A stretch of DNA of 64,000 bases, taken from the IMG/VR virus record IMGVR_UViG_2791355221_000001, positions 39,234 through 103,233 of that record; one strand, written 5' to 3'. Positions 4,897 to 63,787 of this stretch are shown in pieces. The translations under genes and the position numbers were made by a program. Every line of letters starts with the position of its first letter. The stretch's first letter is position 1. The notes below the pieces were generated by a model that saw only the letters and a list, made by a program, of their open reading frames with translations, was not told the origin of the DNA and ran no database searches. Origin of the DNA: a virus. Taxonomy: Duplodnaviria > Caudoviricetes.

Positions 4897-4914
4897 ATAA
4901 AATTACACTTTTAT
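4897..4914. repeat. 18-bp junction palindrome ATAAAA-TTACAC-TTTTAT (leftmost copy)
   Basis: Overlaps stop codon of ORF 4911..5192. Confidence 0.8.
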
Positions 4915-5192
4915 TTGATAAACCCAATTGTATTTCTGAGGTATTCTTCCTCATCTAGCAAATTCTCATCTTCGTCTTGTTTATCACTTAAAAAGCCAAT
5001 AGCAGGTGACAGGTTGCCACCTTGATCAGCAATCTCTTGATAATCTAGAGACATAAGATTAGTATCAATTTGAATTGAAGTACTCTTTCTAGCTGCGCAT
5101 TGGCTAATAAGTTCAAGCAACATATCACACAATGGAAGCACATATCTATCCGCGACTACTCCTACAATTAAACCAATAATTAAAAATCCCAT
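4911..5192 (-). CDS. Small membrane-anchored hypothetical protein
   Basis: N-terminal hydrophobic helix; strong GGAGG RBS. Confidence 0.7.
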   Translation of the reverse strand: MGFLIIGLIVGVVADRYVLPLCDMLLELISQCAARKSTSIQIDTNLMSLDYQEIADQGGNLSPAIGFLSDKQDEDENLLDEEEYLRNTIGFIK

Positions 5193-5252
5193 AAATTATC
5201 CCTCCTGAATATAGAAGGGTAGAGGTCTGCCATTAACGGCATACATGCCATC

Positions 5253-5489
5253 TTAATATTTCAATTTGTAGTCCATTAATTCAGCCAAACTTTGAATAAG
5301 GTGAACAAACACTTTCTTAGTGTTTAACTCTTCAGCTTCTTCAACAATCATCTTTAATGCTGCGCGAACTTCTGTAGATGATTTGCATTCATTAATTATT
5401 TCCACATAAACGTCAACAAGACTCTCATACTCATCAATTAAGTCAGGTAAGAGGATAACATTTATTGGGATATTATGGCCATTAGGCAT
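5253..5489 (-). CDS. Hypothetical protein
   Basis: ORF co-oriented within operon. Confidence 0.55.
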   Translation of the reverse strand: MPNGHNIPINVILLPDLIDEYESLVDVYVEIINECKSSTEVRAALKMIVEEAEELNTKKVFVHLIQSLAELMDYKLKY

Positions 5490-5493
5490 ATCA

Positions 5494-6690
5494 TCACTTC
5501 ACTTTAATGTCATATGAGCATTCAATATTTGACCCATCTAAAATCAAGAATTTCTGCATAGGTTCAGCATAGAAACGTTTAGAGATTGCATAATCATCTA
5601 CGCCCATTAAACTGCCCGAAACAATATGTGTTGTACGTCCATGTTCTTTTACATGGTTATGGTGAATGTGTCCTGAAAACAAGAATTTAGGTATAATACC
5701 AAGCATTTGCGGCAATGTTTTCGCAGCAGAACTTACATAATCCAAATCTCCATGAACATAAACAAACTTTTCACCTTCAACCTCATCGATATAATATCCG
5801 TCTGCGTCAATTAAGATTTCAACATTCTTAAAATCCTTCAACCGAGACTCTAGATACCAAGGAACTAACTTTTCAAAGTTTTCCTTCATTACAGACTCAG
5901 TTTTATTTCCGATTGTTCTAGCATGATTTCCACAGATGTTAATCACTTTGACTGTATTAAAAATGCCAGAGAATTTAGCAGTCATTTCTGCCAATACCTC
6001 TGACACTACTTGAGTTTGTCTAATGACATCTTCAGATGCTTGAACACGAGAAGAAACATGTATCAGCCCATTAACTTGATCTCCTAGATTAGCAAGAACT
6101 AAGTCTGTTACATTATTACGTTCGGCATATGTAAGTGCTTTTGTTGTCAACTGTTCAACTCTAGAGCGAAACACAGAAGGATTGTATGTATTGAGGCTAT
6201 TACTAAAATCGGCTCCATAGTGCCAGTCACTTACCAATAAAACAGCTTTTTTCCCTTTATTGACTATAGAAGGGAAGGGAGGGGTCTGAAAATTTAGTGG
6301 TTTTTCATTCTTCAAGCTTGCTATAGATTTGTCGATTTCATTCTTCAAATGTTCAAATCGTGCCTGTGCTCTCACAGCATTGGTACGCTCACGTTTTTGA
6401 TCTCTAAATTGCCAAGTCTTTTTCTCAAGTTCGAGTGTCTTATCTTCGATTTCTTGCAAATACTCATTATTGCTTAGTTGAGACTTACTATATTCGACAC
6501 CACTTTGAAAATTAGTAAACCATTTGCGATATGTAGATTCAGTCCAATTTGCTTCAAACTCTTTATTAAGGAGATTGGCTACATCATACCAAGTTTCAAT
6601 GCCGAGCAATTCGCGGTCACGACAGATTCTGTATTTGTAGTCAATTGGAGACTCATTTTGCTTTCGTTTGACGTCGGAAGGAGAAGTCAT
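5494..6690 (-). CDS. YonJ-like calcineurin-type metallophosphoesterase
   Basis: SDWHYG, LGD, GNH, HGD, GHIHH motifs; next to yonK as in SPbeta. Confidence 0.8.
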   Translation of the reverse strand: MTSPSDVKRKQNESPIDYKYRICRDRELLGIETWYDVANLLNKEFEANWTESTYRKWFTNFQSGVEYSKSQLSNNEYLQEIEDKTLELEKKTWQFRDQKRERTNAVRAQARFEHLKNEIDKSIASLKNEKPLNFQTPPFPSIVNKGKKAVLLVSDWHYGADFSNSLNTYNPSVFRSRVEQLTTKALTYAERNNVTDLVLANLGDQVNGLIHVSSRVQASEDVIRQTQVVSEVLAEMTAKFSGIFNTVKVINICGNHARTIGNKTESVMKENFEKLVPWYLESRLKDFKNVEILIDADGYYIDEVEGEKFVYVHGDLDYVSSAAKTLPQMLGIIPKFLFSGHIHHNHVKEHGRTTHIVSGSLMGVDDYAISKRFYAEPMQKFLILDGSNIECSYDIKVK

Positions 6691-6695
6691 TCAAA

Positions 6696-6896
6696 TTACT
6701 CCTCCTCACCATCTGATTCTAATGGTTTAATAGATGTATCTTCTTTAAGTGAGAAGGTTGCTTCTTTACCATCGTATTCACGCAATGCTTCAAGAACACT
6801 ATAAACAAAAATCCCATCTTTCGTTTCTTCGGTGATAGTCATATTATCGACATCAAGTAAACCTTTGAATGAAACCGAATTATTTCTTTTAGCCAT
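6696..6896 (-). CDS. yonK: YonK-family protein
   Basis: Resembles SPbeta YonK (FKGLLDVDNMTITEETK...LREYDGK); synteny with yonJ-like, HU and yonO. Confidence 0.75.
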   Translation of the reverse strand: MAKRNNSVSFKGLLDVDNMTITEETKDGIFVYSVLEALREYDGKEATFSLKEDTSIKPLESDGEEE

Positions 6897-6931: not shown

Positions 6932-8254
6932 TTAAAGCATATCCGCGCAAAGTTGAGCGAGAGTAGATCTTTCGCCTTTACTTAATGTCATATGTCCTGC
7001 TTCTTTTACTTCCTTCATGGTTTCAATAATGTGTGTTAGCCCGTTGGAAAACTTGTCTAAATAAGGCGAATCAATTTGGTCAGGGTCGCCTAAGAGTACG
7101 ATTTTACTGCCCTCACCAATACGAGTTGCGATAGTTTTAACTTCATGCTTATTTAGATTTTGTGCCTCGTCAATAATAATGAACTGATTGGGAATACTGC
7201 GTCCGCGAATATATGTTAGTGCTTCAACTTTAATAACATCCTCATATCCTGTGAGGGTTTTATTTAACTCAGCCTCACTTTTGCAATTGAACAAATGCTC
7301 TAAGTTATCATAAATGGGTTGCATCCATGGACGAAGTTTTTCCTCTTTTTCGCCGGGCAAATATCCAATGTCCTTGCCCATTGGCACGACAGGACGCGCT
7401 ACAAGGATTCGTGTGTACTTACGATCATCTAATGTCTTTTTAAGCGCAACAGCTAACGCAATAAGGGTTTTACCCGTACCTGCCTTGCCAGACAGCGTAA
7501 CTAGAGGAACAGAGTCATCAAGCAATAGTTCCAAAGCCAGTCTTTGTTCAACATTACGAGCATTAATCCCAAAGACTTGTTCTTTCTCACTATAGTTGTA
7601 GAGAGGAGTCAATTTATTCTTAATCTTTCTGCAAAGAGCACTTTTCCGTTCATCAAATGATTTTAAAATGAATGAATGATTTTCTGGAAAGTCCTTAAAC
7701 TCCTTGCTGGCTTTCACCGATTTATCATTATAGAATCCGTCAATGATTTCATCTTCTACATATAGTGTGCTGAGTCCCTTATATAGCTCATCTTCTGAAG
7801 AAACAACTTTATCATGTTGATAATCCTCAGCCCTAACTGAAACAATATCCGATTTAATGCGAACCAATGTGTCTTTTGATACCATGATTACTTCTGCATC
7901 TGGATTGTCTTCTTTTAGTTGGTGAGCTACTGCAATAATTGCGTTGTCATTTTTATCATCTAAAAATGTTTCGAATACTACAGAGTCAGGTTTATGGATT
8001 ACAACTTTAAGAGTTCCACCATTATCAAGAAAGACACCTTCATGCAACATTCCTCGCTCACGTAGTTTGTCTAACTCTCGGGAAAAGTGTCTTGCATTCA
8101 GTCCAATGCCATCCATCAGTTTCTTTTTACTATCTACTTCCTCCAATAAGACAGAAGGGAGAACTACATCGTGTTCGCCAAATGAGTACATACCTAGTGC
8201 GTCATTTAGGATGACATTCGTGTCTAAAACATAAATTTTTCTTCTCATAGGCAA
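6932..8254 (-). CDS. phoH: PIN-PhoH (PhoH2/YlaK-like) protein
   Basis: PIN motif YVLDTNV; Walker A GKAGTGKT; RGRS and IIDEAQN. Confidence 0.9.
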   Translation of the reverse strand: MPMRRKIYVLDTNVILNDALGMYSFGEHDVVLPSVLLEEVDSKKKLMDGIGLNARHFSRELDKLRERGMLHEGVFLDNGGTLKVVIHKPDSVVFETFLDDKNDNAIIAVAHQLKEDNPDAEVIMVSKDTLVRIKSDIVSVRAEDYQHDKVVSSEDELYKGLSTLYVEDEIIDGFYNDKSVKASKEFKDFPENHSFILKSFDERKSALCRKIKNKLTPLYNYSEKEQVFGINARNVEQRLALELLLDDSVPLVTLSGKAGTGKTLIALAVALKKTLDDRKYTRILVARPVVPMGKDIGYLPGEKEEKLRPWMQPIYDNLEHLFNCKSEAELNKTLTGYEDVIKVEALTYIRGRSIPNQFIIIDEAQNLNKHEVKTIATRIGEGSKIVLLGDPDQIDSPYLDKFSNGLTHIIETMKEVKEAGHMTLSKGERSTLAQLCADML

Positions 8255-8365: not shown

Positions 8366-8641
8366 TTATTTATTTACCGCGTCTTTGACTGCTTTTGCTG
8401 GTTTCCATGCAGCATTTTTACTTTCAGGAATTTCGATTTCTGCTCCTGATTGAGGGTTTCGCCCTTTACGAGCACTACGTTTACGTGTTTCGAAATTTCC
8501 GAAACCAACAAGTTTTACAGAATCGCCAGATGCTAAAGTCTCAGTAATGACTTCCAAGGTTGTTTCTAGTGCAAGCGTAACATCTTTTTTAGTCATGTCT
8601 GTTTTTTCTACTACTACATTGATAAGTTCGGATTTGTTCAT
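8366..8641 (-). CDS. hup: HU DNA-binding protein (YonN-like)
   Basis: MNKSELI...GFGNFE...RKGRNPQSG signature. Confidence 0.95.
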   Translation of the reverse strand: MNKSELINVVVEKTDMTKKDVTLALETTLEVITETLASGDSVKLVGFGNFETRKRSARKGRNPQSGAEIEIPESKNAAWKPAKAVKDAVNK

Positions 8642-8798: not shown

Positions 8799-11381
8799 TT
8801 ATAAGTGTGTAAATTTTGATGAAAAAGCTGATAAAAACAGGTTTTTATGTGATGCATGCAATACGCTTAGAAGTCTAGATGCAATTTTATCCTTCTTGTT
8901 TTTTGATAATTTTAATAAGATTGCATACATCGTTTCATTGCTCATTTTAAGTTTATCAATATAAAACTTATAGTATTTGACAATATCGTCAACCCTTCTG
9001 TCTGTTTCTTCTTCAGTTAGATTGCTTGCATATGTATTGTTAATTTTAGAAACCATATTCTCTACATAACTAAAAACCCTCGACTCCTGCCTGCGAAGAC
9101 TGTCTTTGATATCATAATTTACGAGAAGGTCTTTTATGGGGATGTCATTTTTCCGATCTGCGTAACTCAGTCCTGTCATTTCTTCGAAGAGTAAGTCCAT
9201 TGGACAATCATATTTTGTTGTTTCAATATCTCTATTTTGACTAACATACTTCCAGAACAGAGGTTTTTCTTTTTTAAGTTCACTCGTCTTACTAACATAA
9301 TCAATTTCTTTATTAATATTGATATCAAACATTTTTTTTGCAAGATCTATGCATATCCCCGATAGTACTGTAACAACATCCACTTTTTTCATCAGTCCAA
9401 TCAATTCGCTCTCTGAGTGTCCATTATTCAGCAAGTCCCAATACCTCGACATACACAACTGTCCTGTATTTACTGTTCTGCCAATATATCTTTGACTGTT
9501 GGACAGTTCGTTATCAATGATAGCCATATCTTCATTAGAAACTTTATATTTCTTTTTGCTACTTTTTACTTTGTTTATACAGACATTATACTTTTCAAAT
9601 AGCTTTTTACTGATAGACAATAAGTGGTCGTTATCAATTAATAGCACAGTGTCTGAGTCATAATCACATCCAGACAATATGTCTTGAAGGGGAAATCCTA
9701 TAGCATTAACGCACACTATATTGTCCGTTAAGTTAAAATAATTTTCTATATCTTTATTGTTTATATTATTTGCAACTAGAACATTGCTTGGACTTGTATG
9801 CGGATTTCGAAATCCTGTGATCTCTTTAAAGTCGAACATTGTGGTATATACTTCATTATAATTCAAGGCCAAAGATTTTGGATTCTTTATATTGAGTTCT
9901 CCTATAGCATGATATAAGAACTCCATGGGATTGCCCAGCATTACACAGTAATCTCCGCGGAGTCTAACCTTGCCGTTTTTAATATGCGTTACATGTCCAT
10001 TTATTATCTCTGTTCTAAATTTTCTGAATATTTTCGTCTGAGATATTTCGTCATTATGCTCATACAAATCTGCAAACATTTTATTGCAATTTATATCGTT
10101 AGCATTATCTCTTATGTAGGCAGCAAAGAAATCATCATTGTTTTTTAATTGATCTATAAATTCTTTCTCTAGTTCTGTAAATTTTGCCACATCTTCTTTA
10201 GTCATAGGGAGAGAATTTAACATTTGGTAACTAGTCTGCTGGATTATGTTTCCATCACTTCCGAATCCAAGTTTAGATTTTTTTTCATTCTTGCATACTC
10301 CGAACACACATTTATCCTTGATAACAATTCTCTTCCAATAATCCCACATCTTCTTGGGAGATCCTACTATTTTGTTGAATTTCAAAGCTTTAAGGCTACT
10401 CGGTGTTGTTATAAGATGGATGTCTTTAGCGAATACCTTTTCACCTTTAAACATGCTTTGCAGTTTCCAGTCTTCGTATTTAATGCCATTAGGACATTTA
10501 GACCTTAAGAATTCCTGTATGTTGCAGTTGAATGCGGCACTTTTAAACATATGGTTTCTTAGCAACATCATTGACTTACCATCGGAAAAATACATAGCAT
10601 CGAGAAGTGACTCTCCGTCAAATAAACTATTTCTAATTTCTGATTCTTCTGTGAAACTGTCTAAGTACCCATCTTTGCCAGTACGAACAACATTTGAAAT
10701 TCGAGTAAATTTACTTTCAACATCTTCTAACATCAATATATTATTTGGATGAATTGTTACTGTGCTTTCAATTGATGATCCAACAAGGCTTTCATAGGCG
10801 AGAAGAGAGGGGAAATCAACTTCATCTGCTTGTGGCCTGTTTCTAAATTCAAGGTTCATGCGACTCCATTTAATCATAGGATCATACAATTTCTCTTTAA
10901 TAAAAAGACACTGACCAATTCTCGACTTCGCACTAGATCTTTTGTAAACAACATATTTTACACCATTATAAATAAATCCTTCTGTGTAGAGTTTCTTCCT
11001 TAATTCACTATAGGATACTTCGCGCCACTTTTCTTCTTTAATTTGTGACTCAATTAATTGAACGAATTCGCTCAGTTTTTGTTTATAGTCAGATTTATTG
11101 TCGTCGAGCATATGTACTTTTGCAGTTAATTTCTTAATGAGACTATTGCCAGAGTGTACTTTTTGTTTGAACTTTACATTTATAATATCTGAAGATATTA
11201 ATTTACCATTTGCCTTCTTTGGTGATAACTTTAATCCTGTCGCAATAAGCTTATTCAATTCGAGACTCGAAGGAATCATACCTATGTATTTAAGTTCAAG
11301 TTCTCTACCTCTAAACATATAATTAAATATGTCACTACCTTCAATTGAAGGTATATATACAGGCTTACTCAATTCCGTCAA
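8799..11381 (-). CDS. yonO: YonO-like single-subunit DNA-dependent RNA polymerase
   Basis: 860 aa; YKRSSAKSRIG, LLRNHMFKSAAF, FRNPH, catalytic GCDYDSD; SPbeta synteny. Confidence 0.9.
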   Translation of the reverse strand: MTELSKPVYIPSIEGSDIFNYMFRGRELELKYIGMIPSSLELNKLIATGLKLSPKKANGKLISSDIINVKFKQKVHSGNSLIKKLTAKVHMLDDNKSDYKQKLSEFVQLIESQIKEEKWREVSYSELRKKLYTEGFIYNGVKYVVYKRSSAKSRIGQCLFIKEKLYDPMIKWSRMNLEFRNRPQADEVDFPSLLAYESLVGSSIESTVTIHPNNILMLEDVESKFTRISNVVRTGKDGYLDSFTEESEIRNSLFDGESLLDAMYFSDGKSMMLLRNHMFKSAAFNCNIQEFLRSKCPNGIKYEDWKLQSMFKGEKVFAKDIHLITTPSSLKALKFNKIVGSPKKMWDYWKRIVIKDKCVFGVCKNEKKSKLGFGSDGNIIQQTSYQMLNSLPMTKEDVAKFTELEKEFIDQLKNNDDFFAAYIRDNANDINCNKMFADLYEHNDEISQTKIFRKFRTEIINGHVTHIKNGKVRLRGDYCVMLGNPMEFLYHAIGELNIKNPKSLALNYNEVYTTMFDFKEITGFRNPHTSPSNVLVANNINNKDIENYFNLTDNIVCVNAIGFPLQDILSGCDYDSDTVLLIDNDHLLSISKKLFEKYNVCINKVKSSKKKYKVSNEDMAIIDNELSNSQRYIGRTVNTGQLCMSRYWDLLNNGHSESELIGLMKKVDVVTVLSGICIDLAKKMFDININKEIDYVSKTSELKKEKPLFWKYVSQNRDIETTKYDCPMDLLFEEMTGLSYADRKNDIPIKDLLVNYDIKDSLRRQESRVFSYVENMVSKINNTYASNLTEEETDRRVDDIVKYYKFYIDKLKMSNETMYAILLKLSKNKKDKIASRLLSVLHASHKNLFLSAFSSKFTHL

Positions 11382-11822: not shown

Positions 11823-11836
11823 ATGAAAGATTGCTT

Positions 11837-14092
11837 TCATTTGATTTTGGCAAGTTCTGATTTTCTCTGATCCTCACTTAATACCATCTCATAGCCTTTT
11901 GCCTTAGACCTATGCTTCAACAACCACCCTAAATCAACGAGAGACATCATCATTTCGCTTACTTTCTCTGAGCGCACACCAAGACACTTCTGCAACACAG
12001 TTACACGTGTTTCTCCACTTTCCAATATGGTTCGTTTCAACTTAGTCATATCTTCATCTTCAGGTGCCGCCTCGCTATCTATACTAAGCGTCTCTTTCTT
12101 GAAGTTTCCTTTCCAATATCCTGCCAAATGCTCGATGATTCGGTCTTGCTCATCGTCATCTCTGCCAATCAATGCACCTTGGAATCTCACTAATCCTTGA
12201 ATTCCTTCAAAACTCAGTAGTCCATCACCTCGGCCTAAGAGTTGCATCTTCGGAACTTCATCTAAAGCAACCTTATAACTCGTTCCATCAGCACAAGTGA
12301 AACAAACGCGAGATGGGATATTTCCTTTGATGAGAGAAGTGACTACAGTGGCGAGAGGCTTTTGTGTTGCAACAATGAGATAGATTCCACTAGCCCTCGA
12401 TTTTTGTGCCAACAATATTATTTGTTTTTCTAAGGCTGGCATTGTCATTATCAAATCAGCTAATTCGTCAATGACAATAACGATATAGGGGAGGCGTTCC
12501 TTTTCATTTTTATTAAACTGCTGAATATTTTTATATCCTTTCTTAGCGAGGAGAGTATATCTATCCTCCATTTTTTCGACCATTGCTACAAGTGAAAGGA
12601 ATGCTTCTTTATTATCAGTTACAACGTCCATCACATGAGGGTATTTTCTATAGCCTGCCAACTCAACTTGCTTAGGATCGATAAGTAGCATTTGGAGGTG
12701 TTTTGGCGATCTCAGCAACATCATAATAACTAATAAGCAATTCAGGAACACACTCTTACCTGAACCCTGAGATCCAGCAATAAGCAAATTTCGAATCCGA
12801 GTCAAGTCATCATAAATAATCTCACCATCGGAGCCAATGCCAGCAATAAAAGGTATTTCACTGTTCTTAATGAATTTTTGAAATTCAGGATTCTCTAAAC
12901 AATCTCTGATGAATACTTTTTCTCTTACATCTTGGGGAATGACAACCGAAACTGTTGATGGCTCTTTCCCTTGTTCTATATTAATGTGACTCAATGCGAG
13001 TTCGGTTTGTATATCTGGAATAGACTTTTGCAACTGTGATAATCTAAGTCCTTCAGGTAAATTGAAATTTATTCTTCGAACAGTTGATCCATGTTGAATA
13101 GAGTTAATTTTTATTTGGGTGTCTTTTATCAAGTTTAATTTCTTAAATGCTTTATTGAATCTCTGTGCTACATTTTTATCATCTTCTCTTACAACTCTCT
13201 CACCTCTAGGAAATATTTCGTAAACATGAGAATTTTCATTTGTCTCTATTTCCTCTGGCGCAACCATCAGTTGCTCAATTTTCTCTTCTTCATCAAACGA
13301 AGAGAAGAGGGGCAATAGTTCTGAAACACACATTATTAACTGTGTTGGGACAAATGGAGTTCTCCTCAAATTTATATCTCTAATAAACCTGCTTTTGTTC
13401 AACGGAATTCCCATAATCCAACTGTTCGAGTAATTCATTATTGAAAAACCTAACTTAACCTTTGCTGCTAATTGATTTCTCTTTTCTTTATTTCCACCAT
13501 ATATGGCAAATCTAATATATGTCTCATATCCTACCTCGGTGAACTTCTGTTCGGCTCCTTCGATCATGGGATTCTTTCCAAAAAACTCTTCTTTATTCTG
13601 TAGGAATTCGAGTATACGATGTTGGATAGACCTAACTACTTTATTCTTAGTTGGTAACTCAATTCCACTAATATAACTGTGGTATTGGAGCTTAGAATCG
13701 ATTTGCCAGTCAACACCTTGAACCTTCTTCAATATTATTTGAATGATGATCTTTTCATCAGCTAAAGTTTTATCCGTATATTTGATAATCGAACTCATGA
13801 TATTCTCTTCTAGTTGCATACGAAAAGGAAAACATATTGGCTTATAACTGCTCAACGAATAACATGATAGTTCCTTTAGATCAGTTTGAATCATCAACTT
13901 CGGCTTTCTTTCTAGTTCCAAGTCCTCCATTTGTGAGAACAAGTATTTTTTTACCCTGTGCCTTGTAATAAGCCATTCTAAACCAAGAGTCCCCTCCGAT
14001 GAAGATAGAAGGGACTCAGCATATTCAAATGTGAGATCACCATAAATGAAAGTAGATGTGTCAACTGACGCATTAAAGATGTTTAATTTCAT
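11837..14092 (-). CDS. FtsK/SpoIIIE-family DNA translocase
   Basis: Walker A GSQGSGKS, Walker B IVIVIDE, ATQKP, LLGRGD, C-terminal gamma-like winged helix. Confidence 0.9.
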   Translation of the reverse strand: MKLNIFNASVDTSTFIYGDLTFEYAESLLSSSEGTLGLEWLITRHRVKKYLFSQMEDLELERKPKLMIQTDLKELSCYSLSSYKPICFPFRMQLEENIMSSIIKYTDKTLADEKIIIQIILKKVQGVDWQIDSKLQYHSYISGIELPTKNKVVRSIQHRILEFLQNKEEFFGKNPMIEGAEQKFTEVGYETYIRFAIYGGNKEKRNQLAAKVKLGFSIMNYSNSWIMGIPLNKSRFIRDINLRRTPFVPTQLIMCVSELLPLFSSFDEEEKIEQLMVAPEEIETNENSHVYEIFPRGERVVREDDKNVAQRFNKAFKKLNLIKDTQIKINSIQHGSTVRRINFNLPEGLRLSQLQKSIPDIQTELALSHINIEQGKEPSTVSVVIPQDVREKVFIRDCLENPEFQKFIKNSEIPFIAGIGSDGEIIYDDLTRIRNLLIAGSQGSGKSVFLNCLLVIMMLLRSPKHLQMLLIDPKQVELAGYRKYPHVMDVVTDNKEAFLSLVAMVEKMEDRYTLLAKKGYKNIQQFNKNEKERLPYIVIVIDELADLIMTMPALEKQIILLAQKSRASGIYLIVATQKPLATVVTSLIKGNIPSRVCFTCADGTSYKVALDEVPKMQLLGRGDGLLSFEGIQGLVRFQGALIGRDDDEQDRIIEHLAGYWKGNFKKETLSIDSEAAPEDEDMTKLKRTILESGETRVTVLQKCLGVRSEKVSEMMMSLVDLGWLLKHRSKAKGYEMVLSEDQRKSELAKIK

Positions 14093-14192
14093 TTTTAAAC
14101 ACCCTTACACCAATTCGATACAGAATAATTATTACAACAGTTGTATTGGTCAATAGGGCAGTAGCGTTTAATATTAAAATAGCAGTAAGCAT
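14073..14192 (-). CDS. 39-aa single-TM protein (not in ORF track)
   Basis: AGGAGG RBS; MLTAILILNATALLTNTTVVIIILYRIGVRVFKNEIKHL. Confidence 0.55.
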   Translation of the reverse strand: MLTAILILNATALLTNTTVVIIILYRIGVRVFKNEIKHL

Positions 14193-14205
14193 ATGATACA
14201 ACCTC

Positions 14206-15418: not shown

Positions 15419-15458
15419 TCGGAGAATGAAGGAATAGATGCAAAGCCTGCAATCCTAG

Positions 15459-15986: not shown

Positions 15987-16149
15987 GGATACCTCCTCCT
16001 TTCTTTTTGAAGGATGGTTTCTTATTTATAAGATTTTCAACATATATGATTCCAAGAACGCCACCTATAAAAATGAATATCTTGATTCCTAACTTTATAA
16101 CCGCAATTGTAGTTACCGTTTCCATTGCCAAACACCTCCGAGTATACAA
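15949..16149 (-). CDS. Small membrane protein
   Basis: Hydrophobic core; within operon. Confidence 0.6.
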   Translation of the reverse strand: MYTRRCLAMETVTTIAVIKLGIKIFIFIGGVLGIIYVENLINKKPSFKKKGGGIHENDAHSEITVR

Positions 16150-54835: not shown

Positions 54836-56155
54836 ATGTTTAGAGATCGCATTGAATTAGAAAATGAGTTAATAGAAGTACTGAATAAAATAAAACATAA
54901 CCGAAAAGACATTTCGAAAATTGATGAAAAACTTTTTGTTAATAACAGGGTTGCCTTAGGGACAATTTCAGACTTAACCAAAGGAGGGCTACAAGAATTA
55001 AATAAAATTGATGAGACATTACTGTGTATTGTTGCTAATGCTGTCTGTGATGTTTCTGGTGAAATAAGAATAAGCCCTATCAATTATTACACTCCAGAAG
55101 AAATTGATTATGCTTTAAACAATGAGTACTTTAATGGTGAAACTTCAGAAATATTGCCTATTACGCTTGAAAATGTACTTATGGCAAAAACTGATGAATA
55201 CATTACTGTAATTAAAATAACCGATTTAGTTCACTGGAAGAATGAAGGACTCATCATTTATGATTATGAGTCTCAGCGGAGTGCTAAATACGTTAGAAAA
55301 CAAAACGGAGTTATTCCAACACCAGACTTAAACAAGCAGCACGTAAAAGAAATATCTGAGCATCAACTGAATGGAACCTACATTGTTGATACTATTACTT
55401 TAAATATCTACTCTGATGAGATTACAGCATTGAACTATAATAACAAAACGAAAACCCTTAAGATAAATAAAGGTGCACGAATTTCTATTACTGATGGCTT
55501 TCATCGACTAGAAGCTTCCGTTCTAACAGTTAAGAATGACCCAGAGACAGAGGAAGTGTTTCAAGTTGCCATCAAGTCATTCGATACTGACAAGGCACAA
55601 AAAACATTTGGACAATACAACACATATCATCCAGTAAGCAAGGAAAGAGTTCAAAGTTTGAAAAAAGAGAAGTTTGGCGACTATGTAGTTGAAAAACTTA
55701 AATATAAATCTGATTTAAAAGGAAAAGTTTCTACAGAGAAAAGGTTGAGTACTTTAGCAAATCATTTAACCACAACTAGTATTTTATCAGAAGCGATAGA
55801 TCATCAATTTAAAATGGAAAGTCAAAAAGATGTGATAGAAGTATCAGAATATCTTGAAAAATTCTTTAATTATTTAATAGGGTCTTTCAAAGATGAGTTT
55901 GTATTAAATCAAAATAAATATCGTGAGACTAGTTTTATTAATAATCAGTATGTCTTTGCGGGCTATGTGGTATTAGCAAGAAGATTTAGGGATGAGAATA
56001 TTCCAATCATTAAATTAGAAGAAGTAATTAAAAACATAAACTTTTCAAAAGAAGTATCAGATTTCTCTGGATTGTTTTCTAAGGGTAAGAAATCTATACC
56101 TTTCATAATTAGTTACTTTGAATCATTGAATCTAAAAGAATATGCTCATAATTGA
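54836..56155 (+). CDS. yopQ: YopQ-like DndB/DGQHR-domain protein
   Basis: ITLN...ITDGFHRL; directly upstream of yopR-like gene as in SPbeta. Confidence 0.75.
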   Translation: MFRDRIELENELIEVLNKIKHNRKDISKIDEKLFVNNRVALGTISDLTKGGLQELNKIDETLLCIVANAVCDVSGEIRISPINYYTPEEIDYALNNEYFNGETSEILPITLENVLMAKTDEYITVIKITDLVHWKNEGLIIYDYESQRSAKYVRKQNGVIPTPDLNKQHVKEISEHQLNGTYIVDTITLNIYSDEITALNYNNKTKTLKINKGARISITDGFHRLEASVLTVKNDPETEEVFQVAIKSFDTDKAQKTFGQYNTYHPVSKERVQSLKKEKFGDYVVEKLKYKSDLKGKVSTEKRLSTLANHLTTTSILSEAIDHQFKMESQKDVIEVSEYLEKFFNYLIGSFKDEFVLNQNKYRETSFINNQYVFAGYVVLARRFRDENIPIIKLEEVIKNINFSKEVSDFSGLFSKGKKSIPFIISYFESLNLKEYAHN

Positions 56156-56170
56156 TGGAGGAAAATAAGA

Positions 56171-57175
56171 ATGACTAAAAATAAGATATATGATTTAAGG
56201 TATTATAATGAGTATCAAAAAATGAGATTTCTCAAAACAGTTTCAGAAAATACAACATACCATCAGTTGTGTTCAAGACTCTTAGGGAGAGTTAGCAGAC
56301 TAGAGGAGATGTACGATAAAGATCTTTATGATTTTAGTTTACCAGAGTTAGAGAGATTTTTTAGATATTTAAATGCTTCAAAAATTAGTACTTCTAGAAT
56401 GAATATTCAAGCAATAAATACTTATATAGAGTGGGCTAATGTACAAAATCTTAGAAAAACAAATATAAATCCCTTAACAATTATTATGGATGACGATTAT
56501 TTTAGAAGCTTTATTGATGAGTCTAAACAAACCATTTTTAGTGAAGAAGAAATTGACGACATTGTTAGAGAATGCAAAAATGCACAGGATGCTGTTATTA
56601 TCCAACTAATGTTTGAGGGTGCATCTGGCACAGGTCTTGATGAGTTGCTTAACCTGCAGAGAAAGAATATTGACTTTAACCATAATCGATTACTCTTGAC
56701 AGACTCAGATGAATCAACAAGAATTTTAGAGGTTAGTGAAAAATGCATGAAGTTGATTCAAGAGGCTCTTGATCAAACTGTATACCAAAAGAATAATGGA
56801 GTTTTTGAAAGTGACAGAGGATCTGCGGAGATTTCATTAGTAGAAAATGATTATGTGGTCAAAAGCACAAAACTTGGTAAATTAAAGTCTTTTGAGAAAG
56901 CAGATAAGTTTTTAGTCCATAGAAGATTGGCAGTATTAGGCGATCCAGACATGTTAGACAAACCATATCTTTCACCTAAGAATATAAAATATTCTGGTAT
57001 GCTCAAAATTGCCAAAGACTATTATCTTAGAGATGGCAGTATTGAGAAACAGTGCGGAGACGAAATAGGAAGTAAATTTAATATCAGGAAATTAAATGGC
57101 GAGTATGTGATTATGCCTTATAAAAGAGACTTTATAAATATAGATACAATTAGAAAAGTATATAATATTGAATGA
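56171..57175 (+). CDS. yopR: YopR/MrpR-like recombinase-fold master repressor
   Basis: YDKDLYDFS, YIEWA, QDAVIIQLMFEGASG, LVENDYVVK, SPKNIKYSG resemble SPbeta YopR; lacks a normal catalytic set. Confidence 0.85.
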   Translation: MTKNKIYDLRYYNEYQKMRFLKTVSENTTYHQLCSRLLGRVSRLEEMYDKDLYDFSLPELERFFRYLNASKISTSRMNIQAINTYIEWANVQNLRKTNINPLTIIMDDDYFRSFIDESKQTIFSEEEIDDIVRECKNAQDAVIIQLMFEGASGTGLDELLNLQRKNIDFNHNRLLLTDSDESTRILEVSEKCMKLIQEALDQTVYQKNNGVFESDRGSAEISLVENDYVVKSTKLGKLKSFEKADKFLVHRRLAVLGDPDMLDKPYLSPKNIKYSGMLKIAKDYYLRDGSIEKQCGDEIGSKFNIRKLNGEYVIMPYKRDFINIDTIRKVYNIE

Positions 57176-57205
57176 GGGCTCCATTAGGAGTTCTCTTCAT
57201 TATAA

Positions 57206-57258
57206 AATAAAAATAACGAAAATAATTATTGACGTATTTTGGGATATCATGGTATATT
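57206..57258 (+). promoter_or_regulatory. Promoter of agr-like cassette with AATAAAAATAA element
   Basis: TTGACG 57229-34; TGG-TATATT extended -10. Confidence 0.65.
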
Positions 57259-57316
57259 AGTAATGGGACGGGAGATATGAGAAATTAGTCCTAGAGGGTG
57301 AGATGAAGCCAAGATA

Positions 57317-57868
57317 ATGGTTCTAAGATTATCAAACTACATAGCAGATTATTTAGTGAATAATTCCATAGGTCAAGAACATAAACATAACACTTTAGTT
57401 TATGGTTTACAGATAATTATTAATCTAATATTGGTTTTTACATTAATATTAGTTTCCTCCATTTTTTTAGACTTATTCAAAGAACTTATGATTTTGTTTA
57501 TTTTTACTGCATTACTTAGGCAAATGTCTGGAGGGTTACATTTAAAGTCTTCAGGTTGGTGTGTCATCCTATCTACAAGTCTTATCTTAGTGGTTCCTTA
57601 TTTACCAAATTATATTCCTGATAATTACTTGCGCGCGGCTGACATAGTTAGTTTTATTACGATTTTAGTATATGCACCAGCAACATTTAAAGTAAATACA
57701 TATAAAAATAGAAAAGCATACTTCAGAATGAAGATGATTTCATTACTAATGGTCGTGATAAACATTGTACTTTTAAAAATGGAACACTTATCAATAGCAA
57801 TGTTTATTCAATCGGTATCTGTCGTGATGGAATATTATAGATTAAAGAAAGTTGGTAGACCGATATGA
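57317..57868 (+). CDS. agrB: AgrB-family peptide-processing membrane protease
   Basis: YGLQII..; LRQMSGGLHLKSSGWC (catalytic His/Cys); YAPA motif; multiple TMs. Confidence 0.9.
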   Translation: MVLRLSNYIADYLVNNSIGQEHKHNTLVYGLQIIINLILVFTLILVSSIFLDLFKELMILFIFTALLRQMSGGLHLKSSGWCVILSTSLILVVPYLPNYIPDNYLRAADIVSFITILVYAPATFKVNTYKNRKAYFRMKMISLLMVVINIVLLKMEHLSIAMFIQSVSVVMEYYRLKKVGRPI

Positions 57869-58542
57869 ATTATTTATTCTCATTCATTTTTTCATCTATT
57901 GAATTTTCCTCATTAATAATATTAACTATGGCTACATTTCGATTCAATATTCTCAACTATAAGAGGGAAGTGATTATTTTATCTCTTATATTATCGTTTT
58001 GTTCAAGCGTATTAGATTCACTACCTTTACAGACCATTGCACCAATAATTCAACTCTTTATATTAATTGTCTTATTTAAAGTTCTAATAAAAGAAAGCAT
58101 TATATTTTCTATTCTTGTTAATGCTCTTGGATTTATTTTCTTCAATGTAATCGAAGCTCTTTACTTTGCGATTCTTCAGTACTATGCCATTGCTGATATT
58201 TCTGATCTAGGAGGCACACACAATACTACAACGTTTACTCTTCAGTTAACGGCTTCATTAATTGTGTTCATTGTCTCAGCAATAATAAGAAATTTAAATT
58301 CTGGTTTCGGTTTTATGGATAAGTTCAGATCAACAAAAAGTAAAATTAAAACAACTAACAAAATTTTAGCAATTATTTCTTTTATCTCGATTCTGTTATT
58401 AAGTGTAAGCCTATATATGTTACTCTCAAACAAAAATTTATACTCTTTTATGGCATTTTTGATATTCGTATTAATTTTTAACATTATATTATTCTACTTT
58501 TATAATAAAAGAGACAAAGAGCAATTTGGCAATGCTAATTAG
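57865..58542 (+). CDS. Multi-TM membrane protein resembling an AgrC sensor domain, without kinase domain
   Basis: About 6-7 hydrophobic helices; ends right after last TM; overlaps agrB stop. Confidence 0.7.
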   Translation: MNYLFSFIFSSIEFSSLIILTMATFRFNILNYKREVIILSLILSFCSSVLDSLPLQTIAPIIQLFILIVLFKVLIKESIIFSILVNALGFIFFNVIEALYFAILQYYAIADISDLGGTHNTTTFTLQLTASLIVFIVSAIIRNLNSGFGFMDKFRSTKSKIKTTNKILAIISFISILLLSVSLYMLLSNKNLYSFMAFLIFVLIFNIILFYFYNKRDKEQFGNAN

Positions 58543-58586
58543 ATTGTACATCGCTCTTTGAAAAACAATAAGGAGGTGTGTTACAA

Positions 58587-58709
58587 ATGAAAAAATATCT
58601 ATCCCTACTAGGAGTAATTAGTTTTGTTGTCATGGTTGCAGATTATTATACAACTGCTTGTGTGTCTATATTTCATGAGCCCGAAATGCCACTAGAACTT
58701 CAAAAGTAA
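58587..58709 (+). CDS. agrD: AgrD-type cyclic autoinducing peptide precursor (40 aa; not in ORF track)
   Basis: AAGGAGGTG RBS; MKKYLSLLGVISFVVMVADYYTTACVSIFHEPEMPLELQK with C-x4-HEPE-x-P. Confidence 0.9.
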   Translation: MKKYLSLLGVISFVVMVADYYTTACVSIFHEPEMPLELQK

Positions 58710-58724
58710 TTACATAGGATACTG

Positions 58725-58757
58725 GGACTCATTATCGTTTAAATGCGATGTGAGTCC
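58725..58757 (+). promoter_or_regulatory. Hairpin between agrD and LytTR gene
   Basis: GGACTCA...TGAGTCC stem without a clear U-tract. Confidence 0.55.
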
Positions 58758-58789
58758 GAATTATAAGTTTGAGATTGGAGGATGATTAT

Positions 58790-59314
58790 ATGAAATTTGA
58801 AGATTGGATAAGCAATATTATAGAACAGAAGTTAAAAATGAAATGTACCAAGATTGAGATAGACAATATAACTAAGGAAATAATTGATGAGTATAGTCAA
58901 ATGAAAAACATATCTTTTGTGAATAAAGAAAATGAGATAGTGTTGGTTGATTTGAATGAAGTGCTATATATAAATGAATATAAAAAGAATATGTTTATGT
59001 TCTATACTCATGAAGGTGCATATGAGCTATTTAACAAGAATATAGACATTTCTTCTCTGATAAATGAAAATTTTATACAAATGGATAAGTCCATATTGGT
59101 TAATATGACAAAAGTAAAAAAATACAACAGTTTCTACGGGGACGTCTATTTTGATGATGTAATTGATGAAAGCTCCATTCGTGTTAGAGTTTTGTTTAAA
59201 AGTATAGAAGTAGTTAAAAGAAAGCTCGGCAAAGATAAGAACATTTATAATGAGGATGATACTCTGTATTCTCCACTAAGCAACAATAAGAAAAAATATA
59301 CATTGTTTCATTAA
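58790..59314 (+). CDS. LytTR DNA-binding domain protein, no recognisable receiver domain
   Basis: LVDLNEVLYI...FYTHEG.Y...FIQMDKSILVNMTKV. Confidence 0.8.
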   Translation: MKFEDWISNIIEQKLKMKCTKIEIDNITKEIIDEYSQMKNISFVNKENEIVLVDLNEVLYINEYKKNMFMFYTHEGAYELFNKNIDISSLINENFIQMDKSILVNMTKVKKYNSFYGDVYFDDVIDESSIRVRVLFKSIEVVKRKLGKDKNIYNEDDTLYSPLSNNKKKYTLFH

Positions 59315-59666: not shown

Positions 59667-60242
59667 ATGACAACATATAGTGTAGATGGCACACTTATTA
59701 TCCCTTTTAACATATTGCAAAAAGCGCCGAATTTGCAAGATCTAATGAGCAATCTTTTACATGAATGCGACATTGAAACAGTCTCTATTAAAACGAAAAA
59801 CGGAGACTCGTACATACTAAATCATTATGACTACATAGATATTGAATATAAAGAAAAGAATATTCATGAGATTTAAACCATGTGAGCTGCTTGTTAGATA
59901 GGCAGCTTTTTTAATATATAAAGTAAAAATAAAATTAATAGTTGATAATGAGATGCTGCTGTGTTATATTTACATTACAGAGAAGGAAAATATCGGAAGA
60001 CAATAAAAGCATTCATTTATTGGAAGAGGAGACGTATGGAAAAGAAGATTACATATAAAAAATACTCAAGTGATGGGTCATTAGTTGAGTGCTATTATGG
60101 AGATATGCTTTTTGCCTTAGTGAGTAAGGTGTCTCAGAGCAACTGGAGAGGCAATTTAACAACAGATCCCAATTATGTGCTCACCAGAAGTACCAGATCT
60201 GAATTAATACATGAGCTGCTAAAAGAGTGCCTAAGCAAATGA
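59667..60242 (+). CDS. Two hypothetical proteins (59667-59876, 60036-60242)
   Basis: ORFs with GGAGG/GAGGAG RBS. Confidence 0.6.
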
Positions 60243-60292
60243 AATCGTTGTTTCATGGGAATATGGAAGACAAGAGAAAGGGTGTAAGATTT

Positions 60293-60804: not shown

Positions 60805-61361
60805 ATGTCGAAACTAAAAATTGGCACTAAAGTCTTTTTAAAGCCTATCAACAACAAAGCTAGGTCTGGAAATATACCAGTTCAGGAGTATGAAGTGAAA
60901 AGTGTTGCTAGAAAATATTTTGAGGTATGGCAAGACGAGAGAGAAACTAGCGCATTAAAATTCTATATTGAAAACAATAGCCATGTTACAAAGTATTCTC
61001 CTGATTGGAAGCTGTACTTCACTATGCAAGAGATTGTGTATCTAAAGAAGAATTTGAGAGCCTATTTAAACACTGGGTTGATTCGAATGGATGGGAATAT
61101 GAGGGATCATTTATTAACGTGGATAAACAGAATTCTACGAGTGCATGGACTGAGATGGATGATTTAAATTTAGCCGAAATGGTTCTTCGTAGCATAAGAG
61201 AGAATAGAAAACTTAAAGAGGGGTTCGAAGAAGTATCTGAAAAGATCGGACGAACAACAAGTGCTTGCGCGAACAGGTGGAATTCTTTTTTGAAGTATCA
61301 GTATCAAGCAGCTATTCAAATAGCAAAAGCTCAAGCAGACAGAAAGAGGCAAATGAAATAG
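60805..61361 (+). pseudogene. Out-of-frame junction of a phage protein and a second RsfA-like gene
   Basis: Overlapping ORFs 60805-61167 and 61005-61361; second contains AWTEMDD..LAEMVL..RTTSACANRWN. Confidence 0.55.
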
Positions 61362-61389
61362 ATAGTTTATAAACAAAGGAGAAAAGATA

Positions 61390-62773
61390 ATGACTAATAT
61401 TCCTAATGAAATACAGGAAGCTATAAAGAATTCCGCAAAGTATCATGAAAAAGCCAAAGAGCAACATGCAGTACTTAAAACTTGGATTCAGAATAATTTC
61501 GGAGAATCCGCGATTGATGATGATATTATTAGAGATACCATTGTAAACCTAATTGAGCAAGCGAATGATCCTTTAGGGGCTATTAGGATTCTGGAGAGTG
61601 CACTTGATAATTATAAATACAGATAAAAGGATAGTTTCATTCTAATAAAACAAGGAGTGTGCATATAATGGGTTGGTTTTTTAATGAAACAAAAGACAAT
61701 TCTTACGTAGTAATTCCGTCAGAAAATGTAACTAAGATAAAATTTGGAGATACGTGTTATATTGGTTATCAAATATATGGGCAAGAATTCTGGGAAATAA
61801 CGAGTGTCTCTTTTACGACTGAAGTATCTTCGTTAGAAGTTCGTAAATACAAATACCATATGGCAGGATATCTGCATCATGCCTTATTGCCGCTTAGCAG
61901 GCTGCTATAAGTTAATTTTCTATTTTGAAGAAGAAAATGGATGAACTTGCAGGAGTACATGACATCTAAATATAGGGCTAGTAGCGATCTGTTGGGTTGT
62001 AGAGCAGATTGATTAGAATAGGATATGAAGAGATAGTTTTATTGCAAAGAGAGGTGTGAAGATTGAGAAATTATACAATTCGAGTCCCAGACAGTAATAA
62101 GCCAGCTTTAAGAATAAGTGGGATCAAGTTTGAAAGAAATCCCTTTGAAGTATTGGGCTCCATCACACTGGAAAAGACTAAGTCATTGGGTGGATTACCC
62201 AACTATACAGTAGTTGATTCTGATCTTTATGACTGCTTTCCAATTGGAGAGCGATTTTGGAATATTGGCGATATGTTCTGTAATTCTTGTAACGATAACA
62301 TACATTCTTACAACTGGAATAATTACACACAAGCATATGAAAAGCTCTGGCATAAGTCTAACATGCCAATATATAGTAAGCACAAGATTGATGATAAACA
62401 TTGGAAAATTTTGATATACAAGCCCTCTGCAATTTTTGATGAGCCCGTTTTTGAGATGATTGAAAAAAGGCTACATAAGGTGGAATTTACAATTTAGGGG
62501 GTGGTTACATTGAGTAAGCTGCCAAGTCACACTAAAGTGAAAATAGAACAATACATGAAACATTCTCATAAGGCGAACAAACTTAGAAATGAGATTGATG
62601 AATGGTTCGTTTCGAAAGGGATCGATACTATTGGTACAGATGAGAATGACAGTAATGGGGGAAGTGCAATTCAAGATGTTATTGTAGATGCTGCTCAAGG
62701 GACAGAGACAACCGAAGAACAAATTGAAAACACAATTAAATTGATTGAAATTAACTATTTTCCAATAAAATAG
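61390..62773 (+). CDS. Small hypothetical genes (61390-61626, 61659-61910, 62063-62497, 62501-62773)
   Basis: ORFs with RBS; several junction palindromes. Confidence 0.6.
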
Positions 62774-62809
62774 TAACTAATATTACCAAAAGAAAGGGAG
62801 CAACAAGAC

Positions 62810-63370
62810 ATAGCTATACCAAAACCCCCATTTAACGACTATCAAACATTTGATGACACAACAATCATCTATCATAAGAATAGAAAAGGTCATGAATTTG
62901 AAATACTTATCGACACAGAAGATTTGCCGAGATTATTGGATTTGAATTATCATTGGATTGTGGGATATTACCCGAAAATTAATGGCTATTATGCTCAAGC
63001 TTCCATCTATTTAGGAAAGAATAGTAAGCCGCGATATAAAACTTTATATTTGCATCGATATATATTAAATGCTGTTGAAAATGACAATATTTATGTTCAT
63101 CATAAAGACCACAAGCAGACTCTAGATAATAGAAAATCAAATTTGATTGGAACTTCTAACGAAAATAACTCAAAAGATAGAAAAGGTAAAAACAAGAATA
63201 ACAAGACAGGTTATAGAAATGTCACTTTCACTGAAGGAAGATATGTTGTTCAACTTCAAGTCGAAGGAAGAAATAAACGGATAGCTACGTTTGAAGATCC
63301 TCATGAAGCAGGAGCATTTGCAAAAGAAATGAGACTGAAATATTATGGTGATTTTTCTGGACTTGATTGA
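62810..63370 (+). CDS. HNH-AP2 homing endonuclease (probable ATA start)
   Basis: YLHRYI...VHHKDH..LDNRKSNL; AP2 TGYRNV...YYGDF; frame open back to ATA 62810 after AAAGGGAG. Confidence 0.8.
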   Translation: MAIPKPPFNDYQTFDDTTIIYHKNRKGHEFEILIDTEDLPRLLDLNYHWIVGYYPKINGYYAQASIYLGKNSKPRYKTLYLHRYILNAVENDNIYVHHKDHKQTLDNRKSNLIGTSNENNSKDRKGKNKNNKTGYRNVTFTEGRYVVQLQVEGRNKRIATFEDPHEAGAFAKEMRLKYYGDFSGLD

Positions 63371-63423
63371 GCAACCAATGAAACCTGAATTTTAATACAC
63401 AATTTGTTAATGGAGGAAATGAC

Positions 63424-63759
63424 ATGAAAGAAAAAGTTGTGATATATGCACGAGTTGGAAGCCAAGAACAGGCAAATGTCTCACTAGATAGACAAATTGA
63501 TTCATGCAAAAGCTTTGCTGTAAAGAATGATTTGATGATTAAAGGAATTTACAAGCAAGTTGGTGCTTCCGCACATGGAACACAAGAGAAATTCGAGTCT
63601 ATTCTGAGCAATATGTATCAATCGAATGTCGAGACACTATTAATCGAGGACTGGAGCAGAATTTCTAGGAATGCAATTGAGGCTATGGAAATTGAGAATC
63701 GTTTCAAAAAGAACAATAAGAGTATCGTTACTGTAAATGGCGATAAACTTTTACTTTAA
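63424..63759 (+). CDS. Stand-alone serine recombinase catalytic-domain protein
   Basis: YARVGS.EQ..SLDRQ...DWSRISRN; no DNA-binding domain. Confidence 0.75.
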   Translation: MKEKVVIYARVGSQEQANVSLDRQIDSCKSFAVKNDLMIKGIYKQVGASAHGTQEKFESILSNMYQSNVETLLIEDWSRISRNAIEAMEIENRFKKNNKSIVTVNGDKLLL

Positions 63760-63787
63760 AAAGATAATTTTATGAGGTGAATCCAGA

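Follow-up and report, generated by a model that had tools for sequence, protein, structure and literature searches.

The question raised by this locus is why one short palindrome, ATRAAA-N6-TTTYAT, stands in tens of copies at the gene junctions of a large prophage. The stretch analysed, here called the window, comprises 64,000 nucleotides of viral DNA (positions 39,234 to 103,233 of IMG/VR record IMGVR_UViG_2791355221_000001; G000:C1:71453-135452 in the numbering of the host genome), and all positions given below refer to it unless a contig or a phage is named. The window lies inside a low-G+C island of approximately 170 kb (0.31-0.38 G+C, host approximately 0.45) in a host genome of 9.18 Mb; genomes in that genus measure 6-9 Mb. 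By its gene content the island is classed as a distant relative of Bacillus phage SPbeta, because homologues of YorL (DNA polymerase, 57% identity), YonN, YonJ, YopP (29%), YopQ (28%) and YopR/MrpR (29%) are present. The reading favoured here, at a probability of approximately 0.5, is that the palindromes are addressed recombination joints between gene cassettes.

The window contains 16 strict copies of the palindrome, compared with 0.33 expected from dinucleotide shuffles, and none of 100 shuffles reached 16. With up to one mismatch allowed there are 33 copies (7.15 expected), and with up to two there are 106 (71.6 expected); chance supplies most of the matches at exactly two mismatches, and a single copy of that kind is indistinguishable from chance by its pattern alone. 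The excess corresponds to about 35-45 true copies. A first-pass annotation of this DNA, made by a model from the letters only, had listed 13 strict copies, all of which were found again, with three further ones at 8831, 52609 and 53110; its total of about 30 is close to the excess, and the shuffles confirm the enrichment. The distance between the arms is exact. When spacers of 0 to 20 nt were scanned, the 16 copies in the window were found at 6 nt and 0-1 at each other length, and SPbeta gave 14 copies at 6 nt and 0-3 at the others; the everted arrangement of the arms was not enriched in the same scan. The whole 9.18-Mb genome contains 80 strict copies and 10 matches to the pattern read backwards. 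Within the prophage (C1:37-190 kb) lie 47 of the 80, and the other 33 are scattered over approximately 9 Mb of host chromosome. The genome assembly carries 7.49% contamination. A second, divergent SPbeta-like prophage is present in the same genome (C56:140000-250000), with 5 strict palindromes in 110 kb.

The palindrome is a site specific to SPbeta-like phages, and distant large phages in metagenomes share it. Strict copies number 16 in phi3T, 16 in Goe11, 13 in SPbetaL1 and 14 in SPbeta, and none was found in phiNIT1 and SBSphiJ5, two A+T-rich Bacillus subtilis phages outside the SPbeta group (approximately 155 kb). Five IMG/VR records contain 30, 44, 15, 53 and 76 strict copies, with 0-1 for a reversed control pattern; they were found by a pattern scan of the whole collection, in which most of the 117 stretches returned were single chance matches. 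The densest sites are those of record G062 (L146-L149, 79 kb), at 0.55 per kb, nearly all of the form CCC-ATGAAA-N6-TTTCAT-GGG. G062 and the window prophage have only a few replication genes in common, at 21-46% identity. No description of the palindrome was found in the main texts of the SPbeta papers searched, partly by keyword.

The copies have a preferred place with respect to the genes. Of the 16 strict copies, 14 are in a gap or no more than 12 nt from the end of an open reading frame (ORF), the base rate for positions being 0.207, and most copies stand between a stop codon and the next Shine-Dalgarno (SD) sequence, 8-30 nt upstream of the start codon. In 8 of the 16 strict copies, and in 17 of the full list of 35, arm positions 2-4 are taken by the stop codon of the upstream ORF, in line with the earlier remark that the left arm of many copies contains that codon. 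Such strict copies are 28245-28262 (ORF 28039-28248), 35995-36012 (ORF 35561-35998), 44474-44491 (ORF 44163-44477), 48123-48140 (ORF 47923-48126), 60239-60256 (ORF 59961-60242) and 61623-61640 (ORF 61390-61626). On the minus strand the stop falls in the proximal arm at 4897-4914 (ORF 4911-5192) and at 11823-11840, where the FtsK-like ORF 11837-14092 ends and TGGGAG follows on the transcribed strand. The copy at 44711-44728 stands directly past the stop of ORF 44503-44709 and that at 36872-36889 starts 9 nt past the end of ORF 36609-36863, while at 52609-52626 the stop of ORF 51913-52620 lies within the centre. A start codon preceded by TGGGAG follows 41776-41793, and one preceded by AAGGAG follows 53110-53127. 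The copies at 28873-28890 (centre CCTCAC) and 31912-31929 lie at the ends of homology blocks and are treated below. The remaining strict copy, 8831-8848, is inside the 3' end of the YonO-like ORF 8799-11381, within its last approximately 50 nt, at a point where no ORF of at least 40 amino acids ends. The palindromes are concentrated at variable small genes and are absent from the core blocks at 12-27 kb and 54.8-59.3 kb. The first-pass annotation had seen no copies in the yonJ-yonO, yopQ-yopR and agr blocks; the copy at 8831 contradicts this for the first of them, and no strict copy was found in the YopQ/MrpR/agr block (54836-59314). Its reading of the motif as a phage-specific site of arm, spacer and arm at the junctions of small accessory genes is supported.

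The 19 relaxed copies listed earlier divide into 11 with one mismatch and 8 with two; the latter rest on their context alone, all 8 being at ORF junctions. Among the copies with one mismatch the stop codon is at arm positions 2-4 at 33785-33802 (followed by a promoter-type element, AATAAAAATAAAAT), 42615-42632 (followed by TGGGAG), 45414-45431, 53526-53543 (followed by GGGAG) and 63756-63773. It lies within the centre at 42413-42430 and 61353-61370, 6 nt upstream at 29983-30000 and 9 nt upstream at 63378-63395. At 60003-60020 the site is followed by TGGAAGAGGAG and a start codon, and at 62025-62042 by an SD sequence and a start codon. Four copies with two mismatches are probable, each with a stop codon at arm positions 2-4: 27025-27042, which has CCA/TGG outer flanks and by pattern alone is not above chance, 43349-43366, 43575-43592 (followed by TGGGA) and 53902-53919 (followed by TGGGAG). 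Two are possible, 31383-31400 (at a junction and followed by AGGAGAGG) and 35278-35295 (an ORF stop ends at site position 1), and 49472-49489, at a junction of convergent ORFs, is weak. The last, 47527-47544, marks the start of a homology block.

The site extends symmetrically beyond 18 bp, with arms of approximately 9-11 bp, and its full form in this phage is (t)CCA-ATRAAA, six free bases, TTTYAT-TGG(GA). In 36 copies, A was found at position 0 in 28, T at position 19 in 19, C at position -1 in 15, G at position +20 in 17 and G at position +21 in 24. The right outer arm (TGGGA) is better conserved than the left, which is weaker because it overlaps the end of the upstream coding sequence. This asymmetry, seen as a G-rich flank, tracks the direction of transcription, minus-strand genes included. 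The half-site differs by clade and does so on both arms: TCTNA-ATAAAA in SPbeta, (t)CCA-ATRAAA in the window and CCC-ATGAAA in G062. Within the prophage the arms vary independently. In 44 strict prophage copies oriented by transcription, the pairs formed by R (position 3) and Y (position 16) are A.C in 15, A-U in 16, G.U in 6 and G-C in 7, counts that match independence, so that no covariation is present. Mirrored half-sites that change together between phages and vary independently within one point to a dimeric DNA-binding protein that would have co-evolved with them, and a dimer encoded by the phage is the most likely reader of the site, which it would recognise as double-stranded DNA.

The evidence for recombination comes mainly from phages of the SPbeta group, since no close relative of the window phage was found and only three junctions of the window were usable. 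A megablast search with 24 kb of the window phage against the phage collection gave no near relative, the genomes of 60 relatives gave gene-sized matches only, and the MrpR homologue had no relative in IMG/VR. For a 10-kb stretch no public sequencing run was listed, an outcome that carries no weight either way. Seven phages were therefore compared over the region homologous to SPbeta 110-134 kb (approximately 24 kb each). The homology blocks have 366 ends, and for 23% of them a site centre is no more than 20 bp away; for random positions the share is 2.5% when they are uniform and 11% when they are intergenic. A breakpoint was present at 70 of 84 junctions with a site and at 111 of 281 others, counts that are not independent because the phages share ancestry. 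When only block ends no more than 30 bp from a site are counted, 34 of 46 right ends are at site positions 17-24 and 48 of 82 left ends at -7 to +2, which means that blocks on the left and blocks on the right both include the entire site. When sites in different phages were paired, the centres were identical in 46 of 50 pairs that are homologous on the left flank alone and in 39 of 41 that are homologous on the right flank alone, as opposed to 88 of 4641 with homology on neither. Variants of an arm follow the flank next to it: left-homologous pairs agree in the left arm in 37 of 41 cases and in the right arm in 32 of 41, and right-homologous pairs agree in 16 of 35 for the left arm and 31 of 35 for the right. 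Eighteen centres occur in three or more phages; 15 of these have two or more unrelated flanks on the left and also on the right, 10 show three of the four flank combinations, and one (TCTGTA) shows all four. This swapping of flanks is the outcome expected of repeated crossover inside a core of approximately 15-24 bp. The cassette recombination proposed in the first-pass annotation stands in part: gene replacements end at the sites in relatives and at a site of the window, but no excision or insertion of a cassette was seen.

The three usable junctions of the window give a similar picture in part. Site 28873 and a site in the second prophage (C56:184655) have the same centre CCTCAC and the same right arm and continue rightward for 215 bp at 91% identity, and their left flanks are unrelated. 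Blocks that match another species (G011:C27, 87%) and a further contig of the same genome (C12, 82%) both begin at 31910, two bases before the site at 31912. The start of a block with 86% identity to G030:C29, at 47531, falls within the copy with two mismatches at 47527, and the relative carries a degenerate site there. Between the window prophage and G065, no syntenic junction with a site in both was found.

A further property concerns the centres themselves. In six genomes or records (this prophage, SPbeta, G061, G062, G063 and G065), with 226 strict sites compared in either orientation, no centre occurs twice within a genome, whereas column shuffles lead to an expectation of 5.3 pairs (P=0.005); at up to one mismatch there are 2 pairs and 15.7 are expected. 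Measured against the rate at which different genomes share centres, 4.15 pairs are expected for strict sites and 0 were found (P=0.016), and at up to one mismatch 17.0 are expected and 2 were found. A site with an irrelevant centre would repeat its centres at the chance rate. The avoidance of repetition suggests that two sites with the same centre are harmful in one genome, as is expected if exchange depends on the identity of the centres. Uniqueness of this kind would fit a recombinase that needs identical centres and would equally fit exchange on a short identical patch.

The following sequence of events is proposed. A dimer of a phage-encoded protein would bind both arms of the site, and each copy in a genome would carry its own six-base centre as an address. 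When related genomes meet, exchange would take place between sites with the same centre, so that a gene or a block is replaced and the gene order is left undisturbed. The actor may be a protein of the tyrosine-recombinase fold, of the YopP or YomM class. That such an enzyme catalyses the crossover between same-centre sites in two co-resident genomes is a doubtful part of the proposal and is put forward tentatively.

Several proteins are candidates for reading the site. The YopP-like tyrosine recombinase (24003-25067, plus strand; Pfam Phage_integrase, 4.9e-17), a candidate reader or enzyme, has R164, H257-x-x-R260, H283 and Y293 of the R-K-H-R-H/W-Y catalytic set of tyrosine recombinases in place, and a YomM-like recombinase at C1:54864-55862 likewise has the R, HxxR, H and Y positions. 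The gene directly after the YopP-like one (25068-25928, plus strand; Pfam) encodes a GIY-YIG nuclease domain joined to part of an integrase catalytic domain, the C-terminal catalytic part being absent from the alignment. A 230-amino-acid protein (45764-46456, plus strand) has in Pfam an integrase N-terminal SAM-like domain only. The YopQ homologue, a DndB/ParB-like protein (54836-56155, plus strand; Pfam DndB, 5.7e-15), is a candidate reader, as is the YonN-like DNA-binding protein of the HU family (8366-8641, minus strand; Pfam Bac_DNA_binding, 1.6e-31). YonN is the best conserved DNA binder across the phages that bear the motif, with 55% identity to SPbeta and 51% to G065. In the five motif-rich records, tyrosine-recombinase genes are present in 4, HU-family genes in 2 and ParB_N in none; with four of these records being fragments, 26-66% complete, the co-occurrence does not discriminate between readers. 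The YopP homologue lies approximately 30 kb from the YopQ and MrpR homologues (54836-57175), whereas yopP, yopQ and yopR are adjacent in SPbeta. SPbeta encodes three proteins of the tyrosine-recombinase fold, none with a canonical active site.

A number of observations weigh against the palindromes as recombination joints. The binding of a protein to the site and recombination at the site are both predictions. Approximately three quarters of the block ends lie away from sites, and among junctions with gaps of comparable length (12-120 nt) sites and breakpoints are associated at p<0.05 in only three of the seven genomes (0.039, 0.023 and 0.01; the other four gave 0.41, 0.26, 0.40 and 1.0). Since a site takes up most of the short gap in which it stands, selection for intact genes would by itself put many breakpoints near site edges. 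Because the seven phages are related to one another, the pair counts exceed the number of independent events, and flank types were called by ungapped identity, so that small indels can inflate them. The divergence of the centres (3/72) is not separable from that of the flanks (93/1296; 12 informative pairs). The crossovers in laboratory hybrids between phi3Ts and SPbeta fall in long identical stretches and do not resolve to a site: in Hyb2 the two stretches measure 1.4 kb (locus positions 3472-4877) and 4.9 kb (13012-17908), and Hyb1 is phi3Ts throughout the tested region. One junction of these hybrids, after yosA, is reported as 'non-homologous'. In the window, the block common to site 28873 and C56 ends inside an ORF and not at another site, and G011:C27 and C12 both have a site at the equivalent of 31912, each with a different centre. 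Finally, SPbeta YopP (yopP, L002:28691-29767) and YomM (yomM, L001:40301-41302) have Lys at the second catalytic Arg (HxxK), as has the YopP of G065, and conserved catalysis is less likely for that reason. The first-pass annotation had named the intact recombinase at 24003 as the possible actor; nothing ties that protein to the sites, and its SPbeta orthologue is the YopP with the Lys replacement.

SPbeta is already known to carry another repeated dyad element, SPBRE, which is bound by the master repressor MrpR (YopR), a protein of the tyrosine-recombinase fold that has lost its recombinase function (PMC10516654). Ten peaks of MrpR are reported in chromatin affinity purification sequencing (ChAP-seq), all at SPBRE (PMC10516654). 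A consensus derived here from the regions upstream of the ten published targets, AAATACAAAWAATATGTAT, differs from the palindrome and gives a copy at 10 of 10 targets when SPbeta is scanned. SPbeta thus carries both elements, 14 strict palindromes and the SPBRE set. The SPBRE pattern is not enriched in the window (6 matches at 3 mismatches, 2.9 expected). The window does contain a second repeat, AATAATAAAAATAAA(A/G)(T/A)ATGTAT, or AATAATAAAAATAAA followed by a TTGACA/TTTACA -35 box, in approximately 10 copies (18670, 23887, 26014, 29141, 29684, 33805, 38153, 39701, 52926 and 59908), and several palindromes stand just upstream of it. This SPBRE-like repeat is the likelier operator of the MrpR homologue (56171-57175, plus strand; master-repressor family; Pfam MrpR_N_CB and MrpR_C_cat), which, by analogy with SPbeta, probably binds the second repeat and not the palindrome. 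Identification of the palindrome with SPBRE was rejected, as the two differ in sequence, in place (junctions from stop codon to SD sequence rather than promoters) and in number (tens of copies as opposed to approximately 10). On the published evidence MrpR is also an unlikely reader of the palindrome, its ten peaks being SPBRE without exception.

The other explanations differ widely in what they leave unexplained. A mere by-product of composition, from A-rich gene ends (TAA/TGA) and T-rich leaders, would profit from the approximately 67% A+T of the region and from the abundance of half-sites in the window (241 ATRAAA and 138 TTTYAT); it is scarcely credible, because neighbouring spacings were tested and gave unequal counts, with enrichment at 6 nt only and none for the everted arrangement, two other A+T-rich Bacillus phages have no copy, and the host chromosome has only 33 in approximately 9 Mb. 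That the palindrome is this phage's SPBRE, the operator of MrpR, might be argued from the fold of MrpR and its binding to a dyad element, and from the MrpR homologue encoded at 56171-57175. It is nevertheless very improbable, since AAATACAAAWAATATGTAT fits all ten targets and is a different sequence, SPbeta has both elements, and the window has a separate SPBRE-like repeat adjoining -35 boxes. A hairpin or binding site in the polycistronic mRNA, which would act in processing, translational coupling or repression, is improbable. In its favour are the fixed position relative to the stop codon (arm positions 2-4 in 17/35) and the G-rich flank that follows the direction of transcription on both strands. 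Against it, the R/Y pairs do not covary, the A.C mismatches occur at their chance frequency, and the hairpin formed by the two arms has a mean of -0.77 kcal/mol, with only 7 of 44 copies at or below -2. The arms are mirrored as DNA, which is meaningless to a single-stranded reader, and the weaker left outer arm is explained by coding overlap. The RNA-hairpin alternative raised in the first-pass annotation is therefore disfavoured. An intrinsic terminator, with its G+C-rich stem before a U run, does not fit either, the stem being all A-U, often with an A.C mismatch.

The repeated operator, also raised as an alternative in the first-pass annotation, fares differently: MrpR binds a different element, but the idea is retained as a roadblock. 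In this form the palindrome would be a multi-copy operator, comparable to a stoperator, at which a protein of the lysogen (e.g. YopP or YopQ) halts read-through of early genes, and the recombination pattern would be a by-product of one conserved patch being present in many relatives. This, the main rival, is regarded as possible, if somewhat doubtful. Many copies do stand in short intergenic gaps of the early region, the half-site is phage- and clade-specific as for a co-evolving repressor, and yopP and yopQ are reported as transcribed in SPbeta lysogens. MrpR provides an example of the tyrosine-recombinase fold as a pure DNA binder in this phage family (PMC10516654), sites of a repressor spread over a genome exist in the stoperators (PMC9283540), and the Lys in place of Arg-II in SPbeta YopP and YomM would suit a binding protein of this kind. 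A pure binding site, on the other hand, gives no reason for centres that are not repeated, nor for the concentration at variable small genes and the absence from the core blocks at 12-27 and 54.8-59.3 kb. As the ten ChAP-seq peaks published for MrpR are all SPBRE, a second protein would be needed, and the site is palindromic whereas stoperators are asymmetric. The reading as addressed recombination joints is the best supported.

Some neighbouring features of the window complete the description. From 1 to 18 kb the genes lie on the minus strand, the virion-related ones included, and from approximately 18 kb on nearly all genes lie on the plus strand and most are small. An ORF of 860 amino acids at the YonO position has an RdRP-like match in Pfam, and 11837-14092 has an FtsK match. 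Beside the YonO-like polymerase gene are a PIN-PhoH fusion (6932-8254, minus strand) and the FtsK/SpoIIIE-family ATPase (11837-14092, minus strand). The stretch 37168-38117 corresponds to approximately 350-950 bp that occur in many copies (70-85% identity) in every searched genome of the genus, and is a repeated host or mobile gene family within the prophage. Directly after the MrpR homologue lies an agr-type cassette (57317-59314), which consists of AgrB (57317-57868), an ORF of 225 amino acids without a Pfam match and a LytTR-only protein (58769-59314). No homologue of AimR was found by tblastn.

SPbeta has been a model phage for fifty years, and its SPBRE operator was explained only in 2023 (PMC10516654). 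The palindrome is a second element of SPbeta, more abundant than SPBRE and common to SPbeta, its relatives and distant large metagenomic phages. If a phage enzyme does catalyse crossover between palindromes with the same centre, each small gene would be a separately reassortable unit, and the unique centres would prevent deletions within a genome. If the palindromes are addressed crossover joints, they would explain in concrete molecular terms how phage mosaicism arises at gene boundaries, a subject debated for decades between random illegitimate exchange followed by selection and targeted exchange. The sites would also be natural landing pads for the engineering of large phages. The question is open to direct testing in Bacillus subtilis, as existing phages share centres and differ in flanks.

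Among known systems, the core sites of tyrosine recombinases are built of inverted arms around a short centre (dif/pdif 11-6-11, loxP 13-8-13), and heterospecific lox/FRT sets have been engineered. The palindrome resembles these cores in its inverted arms, its 6-bp centre at exact spacing and its outer arms of approximately 9-11 bp. It resembles the engineered sets in that no two copies have one centre while relatives keep the same centre at a given junction, as would be expected if exchange needs identical centres. It differs in an arm sequence unlike dif and in its number, a genome having tens of sites with a different centre in each. Integron attC sites are long imperfect palindromes that are read as folded single strands, beside an intI-attI-Pc platform. 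The array of the window is similar to an integron in being a one-directional series of small genes with a repeated site between them, but the palindrome is short, with a fixed 18-bp core and no pairing constraint. The first-pass annotation had proposed an integron-like array; no folded site of the attC type was seen and no attI/Pc platform turned up, although no search was aimed at attI or at an IntI-specific domain. An integron in the strict sense was rejected in view of the fixed 18-bp core, the marginal hairpin and the lack of covariation. SPBRE is alike in belonging to the same phage family and in being a repeated dyad element, one that is read by a protein of the tyrosine-recombinase fold; it is unlike the palindrome in sequence, copy number (approximately 10) and place (promoters), and the palindrome is not among the ten reported MrpR peaks.

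Stoperators stand in short intergenic gaps and are oriented with transcription. Those of cluster A mycobacteriophages are described as asymmetric 13-bp sites at which a monomeric immunity repressor stops elongation (PMC9283540). They share with the palindrome, as a putative binding site, the distribution of tens of copies of one phage-specific site over the genome, away from promoters, and differ from it in their asymmetry, the palindrome having mirrored arms and a free centre. The nearest published parallel in function is that of the PeSLs (promoter-early stem-loops) of T4-type phages, repeated regulatory cassettes of a promoter and a stem-loop between small genes, at which close relatives differ by insertions or replacements and for which mini-circles were shown experimentally (PMC2839356). 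Both are short repeats between small non-essential genes at which insertions, deletions and replacements end, and both would serve as joints of modular shuffling. A PeSL, however, consists of a sigma-70-type promoter and a terminator stem-loop, whereas the palindrome holds neither -35/-10 information nor a stable stem and is an 18-28-bp site of the kind bound by proteins, with a centre unique to each copy.

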